A DNA stretch of 21,652 bases, from positions 1 through 21,652 of the IMG/VR virus record IMGVR_UViG_2516143027_000011; one strand, 5' to 3'. Shown piece by piece: positions 2,681 to 15,402 of the stretch. The DNA is from a virus (taxonomy: Duplodnaviria; Heunggongvirae; Uroviricota; Caudoviricetes). Below the pieces are notes generated by a model, which made no database searches, was not told where the DNA came from, and worked only from the letters and a program-made list of their open reading frames with translations. Both the position numbers and the translations under genes were made by a program. Every line of letters begins with the position of its first letter. The first letter of the stretch is position 1.

Positions 2681-3377
2681 GAATCATTCCCTTTATTCCA
2701 TCAAGATTATCGCCAACCAGCATCATGGCTGCGGTGTAAACGGCAGACTGCTGCGGAATGTCCTTCACCAGTTCCAGTAACGTTGTGCCGGTGTCTCCGC
2801 TGGCAGTAAAAACCCACGCTCTGGCACTCTTCCCCTGTAAGTCATTCAGGCCGCTGGCCACATCACTGATAAGCTGGTCACGCAGCTGCGTGAACTCGCC
2901 CAGCTGTTTTTTCAGCCCTTCGATATCAAATCCGGCACCCGCCACCTTTTGTGCCTGGTTGATTGCCGCAGCAGATAAAGCTGCCCTGCTGGTTGGTACA
3001 GACAGTGGAATGGACGCAGGTAACGCTGCGGCGGTTTTCGCCGGGATCTGCATCTTTTCAATAGCCAGCGCTGCGGCGGATTGCGCCAGCCGTTTTACCT
3101 GCGTGAATGCCGGGGCGGGGAAAATCCCGACCAGGTTATTCAGGCTGGCCATAAAGTTTTCCTGCGTCTGTCCGGTGACCATCATAATCACCACGTCCAC
3201 ATTCCCCCCAGTTCCGGCCAGGCGTTCAGCAAGATAGCGAACAGCATTAACCGGGCTGAGATATGCCCCGTTCGCTGTCTGCTGTCCCAGCCCATAAATC
3301 CACGGATGCGCAGGGACGATCGAACAGTTCAGCGCAGCAACAGAATCCGTGAAGGCCAGACGTGCTTCACGCCACAT
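2652..3377 (-). CDS. Phage tail-associated protein of unknown function (about 241 aa)
   Basis: Start set to the internal ATG at 3377, which has a GGAGGT Shine-Dalgarno 8 nt upstream; the track start at 3413 would overlap the upstream gene by 47 nt. Function not recognised. Confidence 0.45.
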   Translation of the reverse strand: MWREARLAFTDSVAALNCSIVPAHPWIYGLGQQTANGAYLSPVNAVRYLAERLAGTGGNVDVVIMMVTGQTQENFMASLNNLVGIFPAPAFTQVKRLAQSAAALAIEKMQIPAKTAAALPASIPLSVPTSRAALSAAAINQAQKVAGAGFDIEGLKKQLGEFTQLRDQLISDVASGLNDLQGKSARAWVFTASGDTGTTLLELVKDIPQQSAVYTAAMMLVGDNLDGIKGMIHDFDPDTGA

Positions 3378-3954
3378 TTCCAGGCACCTCCGGCCACACA
3401 ATTTCCGGCGCATCTTCCGCTTGAATACGATTCAGTAAAACGCGGTATTTTTTCCATGCGGTAAGTAACAATGTTTCTTCCTGGCTCGCCATGCCTAAAA
3501 CAACAGCATCCTGCAATGTGGCAATGGCAGTATGGGCCTGTTTAAGCAGTCTTATCTTTTCCAATTCTGCCTCACGGGTTAATGCAACTCGCATAGACTC
3601 AGCATCATCCTCCCATTTACTGCCATTCCATTTTTGCCATGCGTTTTCAGGCTCCAGAGTGGTTGTTCCAGCTGGATAATCCCCTGGTGCTGTTATCACG
3701 AACCTTCTAGCGTCTTTCGTATCAAATACAATTTCGCCACGGTGATCTTTAATAGCAATCCATTTCTGTTTTTCTGTATTAAAAATTGCCACGAATCCGT
3801 CTTTTGTTAATGGAGGTTTAATTGTGGTGCAATTGGCTGGTAGTCCTGTGTGAGCGGGAATAAAAGCGTTATCACTACCAATAAACTCATTCGTCTCAGG
3901 ATGAAGTTTATAAACAGTAACTGTTTGATCGATATCACTCATTTTAAATATCAT
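3367..3954 (-). CDS. Tail fibre assembly protein (Tfa, lambda Tfa / P2 gpG family)
   Basis: C-terminal motif LLLTAWKKYRVLLNRIQAEDAPEIVWPEVPG is characteristic of tail fibre assembly chaperones; lies immediately downstream of the tail fibre gene. An alternative start at 3942 is possible. Confidence 0.8.
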   Translation of the reverse strand: MIFKMSDIDQTVTVYKLHPETNEFIGSDNAFIPAHTGLPANCTTIKPPLTKDGFVAIFNTEKQKWIAIKDHRGEIVFDTKDARRFVITAPGDYPAGTTTLEPENAWQKWNGSKWEDDAESMRVALTREAELEKIRLLKQAHTAIATLQDAVVLGMASQEETLLLTAWKKYRVLLNRIQAEDAPEIVWPEVPGNVA

Positions 3955-5561
3955 TAAGCGAGTCTCACGATATAGTTTAATGCAATGTTTTTAACAGTGT
4001 TTTCTGAAGTACCCGCAGCATTAACCGTAATGGTGTGTCCATGCGAACCAATCGCAACAGAGTGCGTATGAGCACCAATACCGACAGTATGTTTATGCTC
4101 CCCAGCACTTGCTGCAGTACCTGATACCGAGTGGGTGTGTGCGCCCGCAGAATTCGTTGCACCTAAGTGAGTTTGAGCAGAGTTCGACGAAGCTACTCTA
4201 CCGGAGCTAACGTTAGCATTATCTCCCTGAGATATCGGATGTGTATGTGCACCTGCTGAAGCAGCTGTTCCGCTAACACTATGGGTATGAGCACCAGTGT
4301 TATTCGTAGATTTAGTTCCATAATCAAACGATGATGTGGTTTTTGTCCCTAAATCGGTATTTGAGGCACTGGCGCTATGGGTATGTGACTTAATATTATC
4401 CTGTTCATAAGATAATACGGCGCGTCCGCTGTTAGGCTTACCTTTAATCGTCTGCCCGCGCATATCAGGAATAACACCCAATGGATACGCAGCAGCCAAT
4501 AATGGATATACTGCCTTATCAAAAGACTGCCCCTGCATAATTGCCCAGCCAGGAGGTGGAATATCTGCTGGCCATGGAAGTGGAACACCAACCGGCAGAA
4601 CATCACTACGACTTAAAACGGCCAGTTCACCCAGCTCCAGGCTTTTTCTTGCTTTCACCTTGTCGCTAACATCAGCAAGGTTTGCATCCTTACGCAAAAA
4701 ATCGCTGCTGGCCTGCTGTTCTCCCAGGCTACCCTTTGGCCGTAAATCCGTGATGTTGCCATCCGCATCAATGCTGGCCACAGCAAACACATAATGCTGA
4801 ACCCCGTTCTGAACATAATCAGCAAGATTTGCTGCCACCGTGATTTTGCTCTGCACATTCCAGACACTGGTCAGTGTCCCTGTCCAGCACACATCCAGCC
4901 AGACTTTTACCGGCTTTGTCGTTACCGTAATATTCTGATTCGCAGCCAGTGACGCACGAAGTCCAGCCACATACCCCGTGCCTTTCGTGACAAAAAACTG
5001 ATTGCCGGTTTTGGCTACCAGATACCCGTTACCAAAAAACGCCGCCGCGCCATAAATATCCATATTTTCCAGGCGCTGGCGTTCATCCATTCCGGCCAGA
5101 CGTGCAGTAAAATCAATCTGCCATGTTTCAGCGGGTGTATTAATCCCGGTTTCCGTTTGTGCGCCATTGTACTCCATCAGAAACGAGCGGGTCAGCACGT
5201 TCCCCTGTTGACCTTCTTTTGTTTTCAGTTTCTGCTGTGATGGTGCATGGACAATCATTGCCAGCGTACCGCTGGCCTTATTGAGCAGACCGATCCAGTT
5301 AAAACTGAAATCACCCACATCTGCGCCCAGCACTACGGAATAGACCACACCGTTTTCATCCACCACACCGGTGCGGGTAACAGACTGCCGGTGAACAATC
5401 TGTGCAGCCGGTGGTAATGTTTCATTGCGGTCAACAGGTGTATCCGGGTTTAAATCCGGCACACTGGCAAAAACAAATTCATCCAGTAGTACCGGTTCAC
5501 CCGTTGCGCCCTGCTGCGCTTTCCAGTTTTCAAACGCCAGTGTGATGGCTGTCTGTGACAT
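3954..5561 (-). CDS. Tail fibre protein (535 aa) with a C-terminal His-rich repeat region
   Basis: AAGGAGG Shine-Dalgarno 5 nt upstream of ATG at 5561. Position between the tail protein I gene and the tail fibre assembly gene. C-terminus carries repeated [15 protein letters not shown] units. Confidence 0.8.
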
Positions 5562-11195: not shown

Positions 11196-11651
11196 TTATC
11201 CGATCAGGTTTTCTGTGGCTTCCGCTTCCAGATACGGCACACCGTTGATGTTGACGAATTTCGGACTGGTCACGAAATATTTGATTTTGTGCGTGGTCAC
11301 ACCGCCACCTTTCGGATCAATATCCAGCAGGTTGCTGACCTGCAATTTATTGCCGAACGTCTCCACCTTCATTTCTTCGCTACTGGCTTTGGCATAGAAA
11401 AGAAAATCAAGTGGGGGAAGCCCACGCCATGAACCCGCTGCACGGGCTTTGGCTGTCAGCACCTGAAGTGTTTTTGAACTGACTTCAATTTCCCCTTCGG
11501 CGGCAACATCGCCATCCACATACCCGTCAGGGACGCCACGCGTCTGGGCGGCAGCGCTGTTATCCGTAATATCGAGCGTGATTTTCTCGATATGGATCAG
11601 ATCGCCGTCCATATAGGTGTCAAACGACATACCCGAAATACGTTTAGTCAT
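11196..11651 (-). CDS. Tail tube protein (151 aa)
   Basis: Directly downstream of the sheath-like gene with ATGA overlap; size and position fit a myovirus tube protein. Confidence 0.55.
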   Translation of the reverse strand: MTKRISGMSFDTYMDGDLIHIEKITLDITDNSAAAQTRGVPDGYVDGDVAAEGEIEVSSKTLQVLTAKARAAGSWRGLPPLDFLFYAKASSEEMKVETFGNKLQVSNLLDIDPKGGGVTTHKIKYFVTSPKFVNINGVPYLEAEATENLIG

Positions 11652-12775
11652 GCTGTGGCCTCCAGACTGGCATCCAGTAACAGACTGATGGTGATTTGCA
11701 GCGGCACTTCCCAGGTGCGTACCACAATGTAAATATCCACCGCCTTTTTGTTCTTCCAGACAATGGTCACATCACCATCCTGCGGCGGCTTCACCTCACC
11801 CGGAAATGACACACCGTTAATGCTGGCCGCAGTGGACATTTCACGCAGTGGACGGGCAAACAGTGTCTGATTTGCGGCGATACTTCCCGGCGTACTGTTC
11901 AGCGAGCGATCCGCGATTTTGCTGATAGCCAGCAGACGAACACGGCGGGCAGCTTTATCCGCAACGCGCAGGGTTTCAATCGACTGGTAATCGCCGCCCT
12001 CAACATCCAGCGTGCGGCCATCTGCCCAGTAAAAACCGTCATAATCCGGGTACCACATCGGCACACTGAAACGCTGTGCTTCAAGCGCCTTAAGTGTGGC
12101 CAGTTCCAGCACTTCCCCGGTACCATCAACCGGCATTTCATCACTGCCAAGATTCATCAGAGCACCGGTTTTAACCCGCGCCGGACTGTCAGCAATGGTT
12201 ACCGCACGGCTACACAGGCGACCAGCCAGCACACCCGGTTCATTTCCCCACAGGCGGGGAACCAGCTGCACCGCCTTTTCTGCAATGCCATCCTGAAGGG
12301 TGGCCATGCGTACCAGATAATCCGCCTGGGCTTCTTCGTCCTGCATTCCCTGTGCGGCCAGAATGAACCACACCCAGCGGCCATACTTTGAAATCAGGGT
12401 GGATCGTAACGTCACGGCCTGATTTACCTGCGCTTTAGCGGTCACATCGTCAGACAGCACCACGCCTTCCACAGAGCACACCACCTGCGCGGCCAGAACC
12501 GCTTTCACCCAGGCATCTGCCTCCGCGTCAGTTGGCAGGACATGAATGAACCCCCACCAGTTCTGGCCAGCGTTCGCCAGCGCAGCCAGAACATCATTTT
12601 TCAGCGGGCTGGCTTCCTCGCCCAGCAGTGAATCAAAATCACTCTGGGCATTCACCGCCAGCGTTTTCCCCACATTTTTGGTACCCGAACCGATAAACAG
12701 CAGCGTGCGTTCCACTTCATTGGTTTCACCCAGCAGCTGATTTACCTGGTTTACGGTCACAATTGGCCAGGTCAT
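11648..12775 (-). CDS. Tail sheath protein (375 aa)
   Basis: Position (after the completion proteins, before the tube) and size fit a contractile sheath; ATGA overlap with the upstream gene. Assigned from synteny, not from a recognised motif. Confidence 0.5.
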   Translation of the reverse strand: MTWPIVTVNQVNQLLGETNEVERTLLFIGSGTKNVGKTLAVNAQSDFDSLLGEEASPLKNDVLAALANAGQNWWGFIHVLPTDAEADAWVKAVLAAQVVCSVEGVVLSDDVTAKAQVNQAVTLRSTLISKYGRWVWFILAAQGMQDEEAQADYLVRMATLQDGIAEKAVQLVPRLWGNEPGVLAGRLCSRAVTIADSPARVKTGALMNLGSDEMPVDGTGEVLELATLKALEAQRFSVPMWYPDYDGFYWADGRTLDVEGGDYQSIETLRVADKAARRVRLLAISKIADRSLNSTPGSIAANQTLFARPLREMSTAASINGVSFPGEVKPPQDGDVTIVWKNKKAVDIYIVVRTWEVPLQITISLLLDASLEATA

Positions 12776-13479: not shown

Positions 13480-13982
13480 TCGCCATCCCCCACCGGCGCA
13501 CCGGCCTCATCCACGCTGTAAATACTGGCGGTCAGTGCCGTCCAGATTTCAGGCTCAACCAGTGACCAGCGCTCACCCCGCCACGGGATAGCCCCGTTTT
13601 CGTCCTGCCTGATCACCAGTTCTTCCACCATCGGAACAGTCAGCACCACTGTGGCCACTTCCTCATCCTCCACCGACACATCCCAGTCCGGTTCGGCTTC
13701 ATTCAGCCCCACTTCATCCAGTAGTTCCCTGTCAGCATCATCCAGCCACGCCGCCAGTAAGGACATAAGCAACTGCGGCGGGCACAGGCGATACGGGAAA
13801 CGCTCCCAGCTCAGAACCGCGTCATACCTGATCACCGCCTGGCGATATTGTCCCAGCCCGTAATCTTTCGCCGCAGGAATGAACTTCATCTCATCCAGTA
13901 CACTGTCAAATGACTTCATCGCGCGGGGCGGGACGTTCTCTTTAAAAAATGCGGTCAGGCTCTGGATCTGCGTCTGGCTCAT
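13476..13982 (-). CDS. Putative tail completion / head-tail joining protein (P2 gpR-like by position)
   Basis: 168-aa ORF between the head-completion and S-like genes, ATGA-coupled to both neighbours. Assignment is by synteny only. Confidence 0.4.
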   Translation of the reverse strand: MSQTQIQSLTAFFKENVPPRAMKSFDSVLDEMKFIPAAKDYGLGQYRQAVIRYDAVLSWERFPYRLCPPQLLMSLLAAWLDDADRELLDEVGLNEAEPDWDVSVEDEEVATVVLTVPMVEELVIRQDENGAIPWRGERWSLVEPEIWTALTASIYSVDEAGAPVGDGE

Positions 13983-14431
13983 ACTTTTTTCACCGTTGCC
14001 CGTTTCAGCCCTTTCATACGGCGGATAACCACTGACGCTTCAGCCAGTAACCCGGCACGGGTTTCCATGCTTTCCTGTCCCGGATGGGTATCACGCCGCC
14101 CGATCGTGGCAAACTCCCCCAGCAGATCCGCTTTTGCCCTGGCAAAAACGGCCTTCATATACTGGGCGCACAGGCTGTTCAGTCCGCCCATTTTTACGCC
14201 CGGTACCTCTGCCGCCAGCGTGTGGCCTTTCGCTATCCAGCTGGCCTCCACGTTTTCCAGTTCCGCATTCACCTCCGCCACCGCTGCAAGCAACGCCTGG
14301 CTGATGGTGTCAGCGTCAATATCTGGCGGTAGTGACCGCTGCGCCTGAAAATCCTTCAGATTCAGATCTGGCCAGAATCCGTTATTGGTCAGCGGTTCAT
14401 CCTGATAATCCAGCGGCTTTCCGCTAAACAT
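13979..14431 (-). CDS. Head completion/stabilisation protein (P2 gpL-like, about 150 aa)
   Basis: Track start 14482 is GTG; reset to ATG at 14431 with GGGGGA Shine-Dalgarno. Position after the small terminase, as in P2. Confidence 0.55.
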   Translation of the reverse strand: MFSGKPLDYQDEPLTNNGFWPDLNLKDFQAQRSLPPDIDADTISQALLAAVAEVNAELENVEASWIAKGHTLAAEVPGVKMGGLNSLCAQYMKAVFARAKADLLGEFATIGRRDTHPGQESMETRAGLLAEASVVIRRMKGLKRATVKKV

Positions 14432-14529
14432 AAATCCCCCGAAAAAGGCGGACTGGCCGGTTTCCACGGCGCAGTTACACACAAGGCGTTCTGCCCTCCA
14501 CCGCGTCCGCCTGGCTTGCGGTAGTCTTT

Positions 14530-14691
14530 TTAGTGCTCAGTATTAAAAGTGTGCGTATGTGCGCCTGCGTTATGGTTATATGCACTCACACTATGGGTAT
14601 GTGCCCCCACAGAATGGGTATGTGAGCCTGCGCTATGGTTATATGCACTCACACTATGGGTATGTGCACCTTGTAAATGGCTTTCTTTCAT
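14530..14691 (-). CDS. Small His-rich repeat peptide (53 aa: [53 protein letters not shown]), not in the ORF track
   Basis: ATG at 14691-14689 with AAGGA Shine-Dalgarno about 9 nt upstream, same strand as the surrounding operon, stop TAA at 14532-14530. Fills the otherwise unexplained 266-bp gap between the small-terminase and head-completion genes. Shares the AHTHSVS motif and short nucleotide stretches with the tail fibre C-terminus. Confidence 0.45.
   Translation of the reverse strand: MKESHLQGAHTHSVSAYNHSAGSHTHSVGAHTHSVSAYNHNAGAHTHTFNTEH
14555..14667. repeat. 63-bp tandem direct repeat, two copies with about 50 bp near-identical per unit
   Basis: gtatgtgcgcctgcgttatggttatatgcactcacactatgggtatgtgc (14555-14604) and gtatgtgagcctgcgctatggttatatgcactcacactatgggtatgtgc (14618-14667); period 63 bp = 21 codons. 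Confidence 0.85.
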
Positions 14692-14697
14692 TTGTTG

Positions 14698-15402
14698 TTA
14701 TCCTTGAGTTGTCAGTTTTCGGATACGGGCGGCAATTGTCTGCCGCGCCGTTCTGACGCCAATTTTTGAGTAGTGTTTTTCTGCAATAGCCAGCAGCTGA
14801 TCGGCTTTTTCCAGCGTTTTAATATCATCCACGCCCGCCGCCGTTTTCTGCCCATCGTCATTGCGTAGCAACTCCAGACCGGCAAACTTGAACCATTTGG
14901 CCGTCACCTGCTCATGCAGTCGCCAGGTGTTTGCCACCCGCTCAAACGTGCGGGTGAAATAAGGCTCAACACTTTCCCCGCGCCCTGCGGTTTCCTGCGC
15001 CCATTCCAGCATCGTATCCGCCACAAACGTGGGGAAATTGCTGCGCAACCGATCCGGGGTTGCCTGCTGCTGACTGATTGCAATGTCAGCCCAGTCCAGC
15101 GCCTTATCCAGATCGCCCACGTCAAACAGCCAGATAACACACCAGGCGAAAACCGGATTTGCATACACCTGGCCACTATCCAGATAGGCTTCCACAGTGG
15201 GAACCCAGCGCGGCAACAGCACATCACGTTTATACTCGACGCGATCGGCAATGGTAGGCAGACTTCGAACATGTTCCACATCCGTTTCCAGCGCCCTGAT
15301 CAGCAGGTGCATACTTTCCGTGGTTTCCAGTGCCTGGCTGCGCTTCAGCTTTTGTTCCATTGCAATACGCTGACTGTGACGCTGTGCGGGGGAAAGTGCC
15401 AT
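14698..15402 (-). CDS. Terminase small (endonuclease) subunit, P2 gpM-like
   Basis: ATG at 15402 with GGAGG Shine-Dalgarno, 3 nt after the capsid stop; position between capsid and head completion genes as in P2; size close to gpM. Confidence 0.6.
   Translation of the reverse strand: MALSPAQRHSQRIAMEQKLKRSQALETTESMHLLIRALETDVEHVRSLPTIADRVEYKRDVLLPRWVPTVEAYLDSGQVYANPVFAWCVIWLFDVGDLDKALDWADIAISQQQATPDRLRSNFPTFVADTMLEWAQETAGRGESVEPYFTRTFERVANTWRLHEQVTAKWFKFAGLELLRNDDGQKTAAGVDDIKTLEKADQLLAIAEKHYSKIGVRTARQTIAARIRKLTTQG

Follow-up and report, generated by a model that had tools for sequence, protein, structure and literature searches.

In tail fibres of the T4 gp37 type, three chains coordinate one Fe2+ ion at each level of HxH motifs (PMC11705849, PMC12407873), and in the spikes formed by P2 gpV and phi92 gp138 a trimer buries a metal ion with three such motifs (PMC12407873). 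ESSI-2-like phages have been described from infant gut viromes (PMC6969025). The stretch of DNA analysed here (IMG/VR record IMGVR_UViG_2516143027_000011, 21,652 nt, hereafter "the window") is an ESSI-2-like (Quadragintavirus, Peduoviridae) prophage of E. coli, and it carries, between the head genes gpM and gpL, a very small open reading frame (micro-ORF) made up of HxH repeats. The reading that we favour, with a probability of roughly 0.5, is that the micro-ORF is a genuine, dispensable small gene, i.e., a free-standing tail-fibre HxH repeat (PF03335) that sits in a variable slot and encodes an accessory peptide. The observations reported below establish the family membership of the micro-ORF, the polymorphism of the slot, the intactness of the alleles, a frame-specific constraint and repeat-mediated change in length.

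The micro-ORF and its surroundings

The features of the gpM-gpL region that are needed for what follows lie on the minus strand:

14698-15402 (-): gpM, terminase small subunit (PF05944, E 7e-40)
14701-14705 (-): AAGGA Shine-Dalgarno (SD) of the micro-ORF, made by the last sense codons of gpM (CAA GGA)
14530-14691 (-), including the TAA stop: His-repeat micro-ORF, 53 aa with 12 His, four HxH motifs and two degenerate YNH units
14555-14667 (-): two 63-bp (21-codon) higher-order repeat copies, at 14618-14667 and 14555-14604, made of 21-nt units
14432-14529 (-): spacer from the slot to gpL, 98 nt, conserved in all slot states of the lineage
13979-14431 (-): gpL, head completion / head-tail adaptor (PF05926, E 7e-39)

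The first-pass annotation of the window had described a 53-aa minus-strand ORF behind an AAGGA Shine-Dalgarno and built from a 63-bp tandem repeat, and it was right on each of these points. The 3' end of gpM reads ...ACT CAA GGA TAA, with its stop at 14698-14700; the AAGGA lies 9 nt from the micro-ORF ATG (14691), which is placed 6 nt past the gpM stop (CAA CAA between) and shares its frame with gpM, and the junction GGATAACAACAAATG is identical across all filled alleles. Read-through of the gpM stop would fuse the His repeats onto the small terminase (TAA CAA CAA between; 14689-14700). The common frame may be a coincidence, because the alternative cargo of the same slot, the L33 ORF described below, is out of frame with gpM. 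Self-comparison of the micro-ORF finds 96% identity over 50 nt between the 63-bp-offset copies (E 2e-19), Tandem Repeats Finder reports a period of 21 with 4.8 copies (score 102, 14571-14670), and a conserved core, GCACATAnCCAT, is found in each repeat unit. The peptide has a mass of 5.7 kDa, as compared to 8 kDa for the ev129 allele; it is 23% His, has one Lys residue and is devoid of a hydrophobic core.

The 266-bp distance between M and L given in the first-pass annotation is correct if gpL begins at ATG 14431, the start chosen by PGAP (150 aa, GGGGGA SD). This start is ambiguous, since phage records use GTG 14482 (167 aa), which overlaps the conserved spacer, and gene callers in a large collection also report a 162-aa gpL. 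The M and L genes of P2, which had been taken to be adjacent, are in fact separated by a spacer of 99 nt (NC_001895 5901-5999; L041:1902-2000), so that 98 of the 266 nt in the window are the counterpart of a P2-type spacer; spacer length is 95-99 nt in P2, ESSI-2 and YenM_324, matching the 98 nt of the window. The spacer is probably ancestral, given that it is present whichever of its three states the slot is in.

A cargo slot between gpM and gpL

Those three states of the slot after the gpM stop in ESSI-2-like Peduoviridae are distributed as follows:

Empty (gpM stop, then the spacer at once): complete E. coli genomes, in about 20 of 25 related prophages, a count of which two were checked by sequence
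Empty: Cronobacter phage ESSI-2 (96-nt gap), Yersinia phage YenM_324 (95 nt), P2 (99 nt)
Filled by L33 (63-65 aa, phrog_8618): ESSI2_ev015 and ev040, and ev239 with a diverged homologue
Filled by the His-repeat ORF: five complete E. coli genomes, phage ESSI2_ev129, three IMG/VR contigs and six metagenome contigs

To the question raised at the outset, whether the M-L gap is normally empty, the answer for related E. coli prophages is therefore that it is, apart from the spacer. The micro-ORF is present in 5 of 5,426 complete E. coli genomes and its context is constant, in the order gpM, ORF, spacer, gpL. Its presence or absence varies at a fixed junction between flanks that are 92-100% identical, which is the pattern of a moron-type gene, and on the genomes compared the position immediately after the gpM stop is a site for small cargo.

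The genome of E. coli MFDS1016424, with 99.8% identity to the 421-nt query, has the ORF as hypothetical protein WP_071989108.1; several WP_ entries for the family exist in RefSeq, and gp20 of ESSI2_ev129 (YP_009877543.1), annotated "tail fiber protein", is a 78-aa allele. The belief that described P2-like phages have no equivalent gene was thus mistaken. Beyond this family, no stand-alone relative turned up when 1.84 billion representative proteins were searched exhaustively with HMMER, the further matches being long fibre-like or low-complexity proteins only. A word-indexed protein search returned two relatives only, and exact look-up missed most alleles. Searches of NCBIfam and PADLOC with the micro-ORF returned nothing, PHROGs gave weak tail-fibre families only, and tblastn against plasmids gave no match; in species-representative genomes the exact start pattern was found nowhere and a degenerate HTHTFNTE pattern matched once, in an unrelated sequence. 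Searches of the literature on Quadragintavirus and ESSI2 phages turned up no reference to the micro-ORF.

The other occupant of the slot, L33 (L002:1305-1502, L003:1305-1502 and L043:1011-1202), is kept in two genera and is found in E. coli and Citrobacter assemblies; its ORF has no match in Pfam, PDB or PADLOC.

Kinship with the tail-fibre repeat

The resident tail fibre of the window has two features that bear on the origin of the micro-ORF:

3954-5561 (-): tail fibre gene, carrying PF12571, PF07484 and PF03335
4020-4400 (-): HxH (PF03335) region of the fibre, T4 gp37 needle-like, with GAHTHSVS in common with the micro-ORF

The C-terminus of this fibre, with its seven HxH motifs, is close in sequence to the T4 gp37 needle, such that a P2-type head and a T-even-type fibre tip are found in one phage; next after the fibre gene, at 3367-3954, comes a tail-fibre assembly gene.

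Against PF03335 (phage tail fibre repeat, Phage_fiber), for which the curated gathering threshold is a whole-protein score of 20 bits, the micro-ORF peptide scores 32.7 bits, and other alleles also pass, at 23.5 bits (32 aa) and 29.8 bits (78 aa). The peptide aligns collinearly to residues 473-514 of the resident fibre with 58% identity (E 1e-8), and the alignment keeps the pattern G-[AS]-H-x-H-[ST]-[VL]. The suggestion that the fibre C-terminus has the same GAHTHSVSG motif is therefore well founded, both proteins being matched by PF03335, and the profile score together with the fibre alignment argues that the micro-ORF is not a chance ORF: as far as sequence can tell, it descends from fibre-type sequence. 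The 82-aa allele (L012) has, in addition, a weak direct match to the receptor-binding tip of T4 gp37 (PDB 2XGF). Among 29 distinct repeat units the second His is invariant (29/29); the first is replaced by Y or R in some, and some of the HxH motifs have degenerated to YNH or RSH.

Kinship at the level of DNA is more distant. Exact matches between the micro-ORF and the resident fibre gene are 12-14 nt long and on the same strand, the number of 14-mers expected by chance for a window of this size being estimated at about 0.02; these matches, and a single 20-nt match at 95% (E 6.6e-4), all fall in 4243-4388. The nucleotide stretches that were said to recur over about 3960-4350 are thus real, and they are confined to the narrower interval. 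Across all pairings of a micro-ORF allele with a fibre examined, exact matches reach 16 nt at most, and the ev129 allele is no closer to its own fibre than to foreign fibres. With exact identity limited to 14 nt (16 nt for any fibre), the micro-ORF was not recently copied from the resident fibre gene; from the idea of a captured fibre fragment there survives an independent HxH cistron of the PF03335 family, and recent derivation from the resident gene has to be given up. The G+C content of the micro-ORF (45%) is close to that of the fibre HxH region (46.7%), as compared to 55-56% for gpM and gpL.

A tail fibre would be expected to have an N-terminal attachment domain and a C-terminal receptor-binding or collar domain, and the micro-ORF consists of repeats only. 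The labels "tail fiber protein" and "phage tail protein" that it bears in databases are over-annotations of the repeat match. Nor does an HxH fibre depend on it: the fibres of ev015, which has L33 in the slot, and ev129 each have six HxH motifs as compared to seven in the window, and ev015 and ev040 are viable close relatives with a similar HxH fibre and no His-repeat ORF. The micro-ORF is therefore dispensable for HxH fibres, which makes the proposed fibre-tip assembly factor unlikely as an obligatory role. An essential fibre chaperone is ruled out by ev015, whose HxH fibre is comparable.

Alleles, length change and coding constraint

From 16 loci (complete genomes, ev129, IMG/VR and metagenomes) we obtained 11 distinct DNA alleles of the micro-ORF, with lengths of 32, 33, 48, 53, 61, 68, 73, 78 and 82 aa, and two further alleles, of 33 and 47 aa, are known as proteins only. 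Every allele is intact, with MKESHLQG at the N-terminus and HTHTFNTE[HQ] at the C-terminus, and the SD, the start region and the C-terminal unit are nearly invariant among them. Frame-disrupting differences between copies, which the first-pass annotation would have regarded as the mark of a relic, occur in none of the 11 DNA alleles. As the repeat units are of 7 or 8 codons, unit-sized indels hold the frame automatically, and intact frames are for this reason weak evidence for coding.

When the window is compared with ev129, variability over 3.6 kb is highest in the repeat region, which is the least conserved part of the head operon, with 48-85% identity per 100 nt as against 92-100% in the flanks. 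E. coli EC42405 corresponds to the window with exactly 63 bp removed (99.3% identity). A single unit, AYNHSAG or AYNHNAG, distinguishes the two common 32-aa alleles, and both alleles are the expected products of unequal crossover at different points between the 63-bp copies of the window; the AYNHNAG allele occurs in 79 blocks of a large collection, always in the context gpM, ORF, gpL. Comparison of the alleles indicates that the micro-ORF changes length through unequal recombination between its 21- and 63-bp repeats, with a tendency to collapse.

One metagenome contig (ERZ791605 NODE-68, L019, 84 kb) has at 11491-11658 an allele identical to that of the window, and the 53-aa allele is therefore not confined to one isolate. 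The 73-aa allele, on metagenome contig OBZV01012238.1 (L024:268-495), has a 15-nt in-frame AHSVS insertion that is not a whole unit; it may be either a genuine partial duplication or an artefact of assembly on a short (1.3-kb) contig.

A better guide to coding than the intact frames is the nature of the differences between units. Among the 29 distinct unit sequences there are 18 pairs that differ by exactly one base, and these divide into 9 synonymous and 9 non-synonymous differences, whereas 22.7% would be expected to be synonymous (p = 0.010; the 18 pairs are not independent and part of the excess may have been inherited from the ancestral fibre gene). Eleven of the 18 differences are at codon position 3. 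The same count made in the other five frames gives no synonymous excess, which also disposes of the antisense ORFs at 14549-14707 (+) and 14559-14756 (+) as the coding frame. With the excess limited to the annotated frame, the unit comparison indicates that this frame is, or recently was, under protein-level constraint.

A dispensable gene or a relic

If the micro-ORF is a gene, it would be transcribed together with the late O-N-M-L head operon, and its own AAGGA would serve for its translation, probably by ribosomes arriving from the end of gpM. The product, of 5.7 kDa, would have no fold when alone; three chains might come together around Fe2+ or a different divalent ion to form a short rod, by analogy with T4 gp37 and P2 gpV, and the product is on these grounds probably an accessory, fibre-derived, putative metal-binding peptide. 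We would favour for it the role of a helper or partner that the HxH fibre can do without, or of a minor virion-associated peptide. The AlphaFold2 (AF2) model of the monomer (pLDDT 52.7) has no secondary structure, and this is equally compatible with folding as a metal-bound oligomer and with a peptide that has no function. Against the gene stand the narrowness of the family in complete E. coli genomes, the viability of ev015 and ev040 without it in spite of their similar HxH fibre, and the fact that its shortest alleles are the commonest and can be derived by repeat collapse, which looks like decay.

Some of these observations nourish the principal alternative, which we hold to be possible but doubtful, namely that the micro-ORF is a neutral relic: a gp37-like fragment of a fibre gene that came to rest in the slot and acquired a start codon by luck behind the SD-like end of gpM, that is perhaps translated but has no function, and whose repeats expand and collapse by drift up to its eventual loss. 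Such a relic would be rare and easily lost, and it is the empty slot that prevails among the related E. coli prophages; it would evolve faster than its surroundings, as the repeat segment does, and collapse of 63 bp from the window allele would account for both of the dominant 32-aa alleles. The partial degeneration of HxH to YNH or RSH, the want of any association with fibre type and the absence of a confident fold for the AF2 monomer would be unsurprising as well. Drift does not, however, predict that start, stop and frame should be kept in 11 of 11 DNA alleles, including the one with a 15-nt indel that is not unit-sized, or that the synonymous excess should be specific to one frame (p = 0.01); nor does it predict the near invariance of the SD, start region and C-terminal unit, or the retention in each unit of the second His together with the flanking Gly and Val/Leu positions.

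A bolder form of the gene reading, which we regard as unlikely, would make the product a self-sufficient, minimal "metal-threaded" trimer, with chains of 32-82 residues around a row of Fe2+ or Zn2+ ions, that acts in trans in morphogenesis. Repeat copy number would then set the length of the rod, which might, for example, cap or co-assemble with the HxH shaft of the fibre, or decorate the neck or head.

The spacer and other alternatives

It is improbable, in our judgement, that the micro-ORF is a regulatory device in which translation of a His-codon-rich ORF sets the amount of gpL, whether by translational coupling or by a His-tRNA-sensitive attenuation at GGCGGAC...GUCCGCC-UUUUU in the spacer. 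The arrangement of the region is suggestive, in that 12 of the 53 codons are His codons, the ORF ends 3 nt (two A residues beyond TAA) before the conserved spacer, and its stop lies about as far from the spacer as does the gpM stop in relatives with an empty slot. The P2 spacer, moreover, forms a long, strong hairpin followed by CUUUU (z -3.65 relative to shuffled sequences). In the window, however, the GGCGGAC/GUCCGCC stem with its U-run closes a branched fold that is not significant, the spacer folding no better than shuffled sequence (z -0.57 and -0.45), and the spacer is independent of the micro-ORF, because it is unchanged when the slot is empty or filled by L33. The His codons are spaced as HxH motifs call for and are not clustered beside a segment capable of alternative pairing, and the variation among units has a protein-level pattern. 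Rfam gives nothing at E <= 1 for 14300-14800, and a consensus scan of 14200-15000 finds neither a sigma-70-like promoter nor a simple intrinsic terminator. The spacer itself, which is unannotated, might function in the late head operon as an attenuator or in RNA stability.

Very improbable is the possibility that the micro-ORF diversifies the fibre tip by donating sequence to the fibre gene, as a cassette for recombination or gene conversion; the first-pass annotation had likewise thought of a recombination substrate. Motif, strand and frame are indeed common to the micro-ORF and the fibre HxH region, with exact matches of 12-16 nt. Efficient homologous recombination usually needs tracts longer than 16 nt, though, and none of the identity tracts exceeds this length; the ev129 allele matches its own fibre no better than others, and no chimeric alleles were found among the fibres seen. 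The case for a recombination substrate is weakened accordingly, and gene conversion with the resident fibre is ruled out by matches that are so short and not genome-specific. The HxH shaft of gp37-type fibres, furthermore, is not receptor-contacting (T4 gp37; PMC12407873, PMC11705849).

Least probable of all is a function of the 21-bp repeats (two helical turns per unit) as an array at the level of DNA, bound by a phage or host protein and with the ORF incidental, for in spite of the 21-nt periodicity and the conserved core of each unit, variation falls mainly at the third codon positions of a single frame, the 24-nt units disrupt helical phasing, the conserved start, SD and stop are left unexplained, and the relatives with an empty slot are viable phages.

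Significance

The repeat family and the idea of a cargo slot are known already, and the ORF itself is present in RefSeq and GenBank under names that are uninformative or over-reaching. What is new is a free-standing HxH micro-protein made of repeats only, with copy-number alleles and a place in the head operon, which is undescribed in the literature searched. Should it be made and bind metal, the iron-binding HxH fibre fold would have in it its smallest natural unit, convenient as a model for metal-templated trimeric beta-structures and perhaps usable in the design of engineered fibres; the metal-threaded trimer, if true, would be the first free-standing HxH module, and one that is naturally variable in length. 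If it is a decaying relic, the locus records the dispersal and erosion of fibre-gene fragments in the genomes of phages. In P2-family phages the gpM-gpL junction is, in addition, a defined slot for the swapping of small cargo, which is of use in annotation and in phage engineering.

Comparison with known systems

The micro-ORF belongs to the same repeat family as the HxH needle of T4 gp37-type fibres (PF03335, PDB 2XGF) and has its G-[AS]-H-x-H-[ST]-[VL] pattern. It differs from these fibres in being all repeat over its 32-82 aa, with no shaft or attachment domain, collar or receptor-binding head, in the spacing of its HxH motifs (7-8 residues, as compared to 9 or more in the fibre) and in its location within a head operon. 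Trimer formation and metal binding are putative in its case. In the gpV and gp138 spikes a single motif ends a large protein of OB-fold and beta-helix, whereas the micro-ORF has several motifs alone, and the two have no detectable sequence relationship past the motif. Helicobacter Hpn and the hisL leader peptide are also short and very His-rich. The micro-ORF has no sequence relationship to either, and its His residues follow the fibre-type HxH pattern and do not form runs; compared with a hisL-type attenuator, its His codons are dispersed, its spacer is independent of the ORF and the fold of the spacer is not significant.

Temperate phages carry non-essential genes in variable slots, such as old, tin, Z/fun and orf30 of P2. 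The micro-ORF is like these morons in that its presence differs among collinear genomes that are 95-98% identical, in having alternative occupants of its slot and in its atypical G+C content. It is unlike them in that a promoter and terminator of its own were not found (consensus scan, 14200-15000), and from its place inside a late operon it is probably expressed in lytic growth only. The nearest counterpart in position is L33 (phrog_8618), which is unrelated, non-repetitive, out of frame with gpM and kept across Evevirus and Quadragintavirus, and which nevertheless occupies the same slot and, at 63-65 aa, is of similar size.
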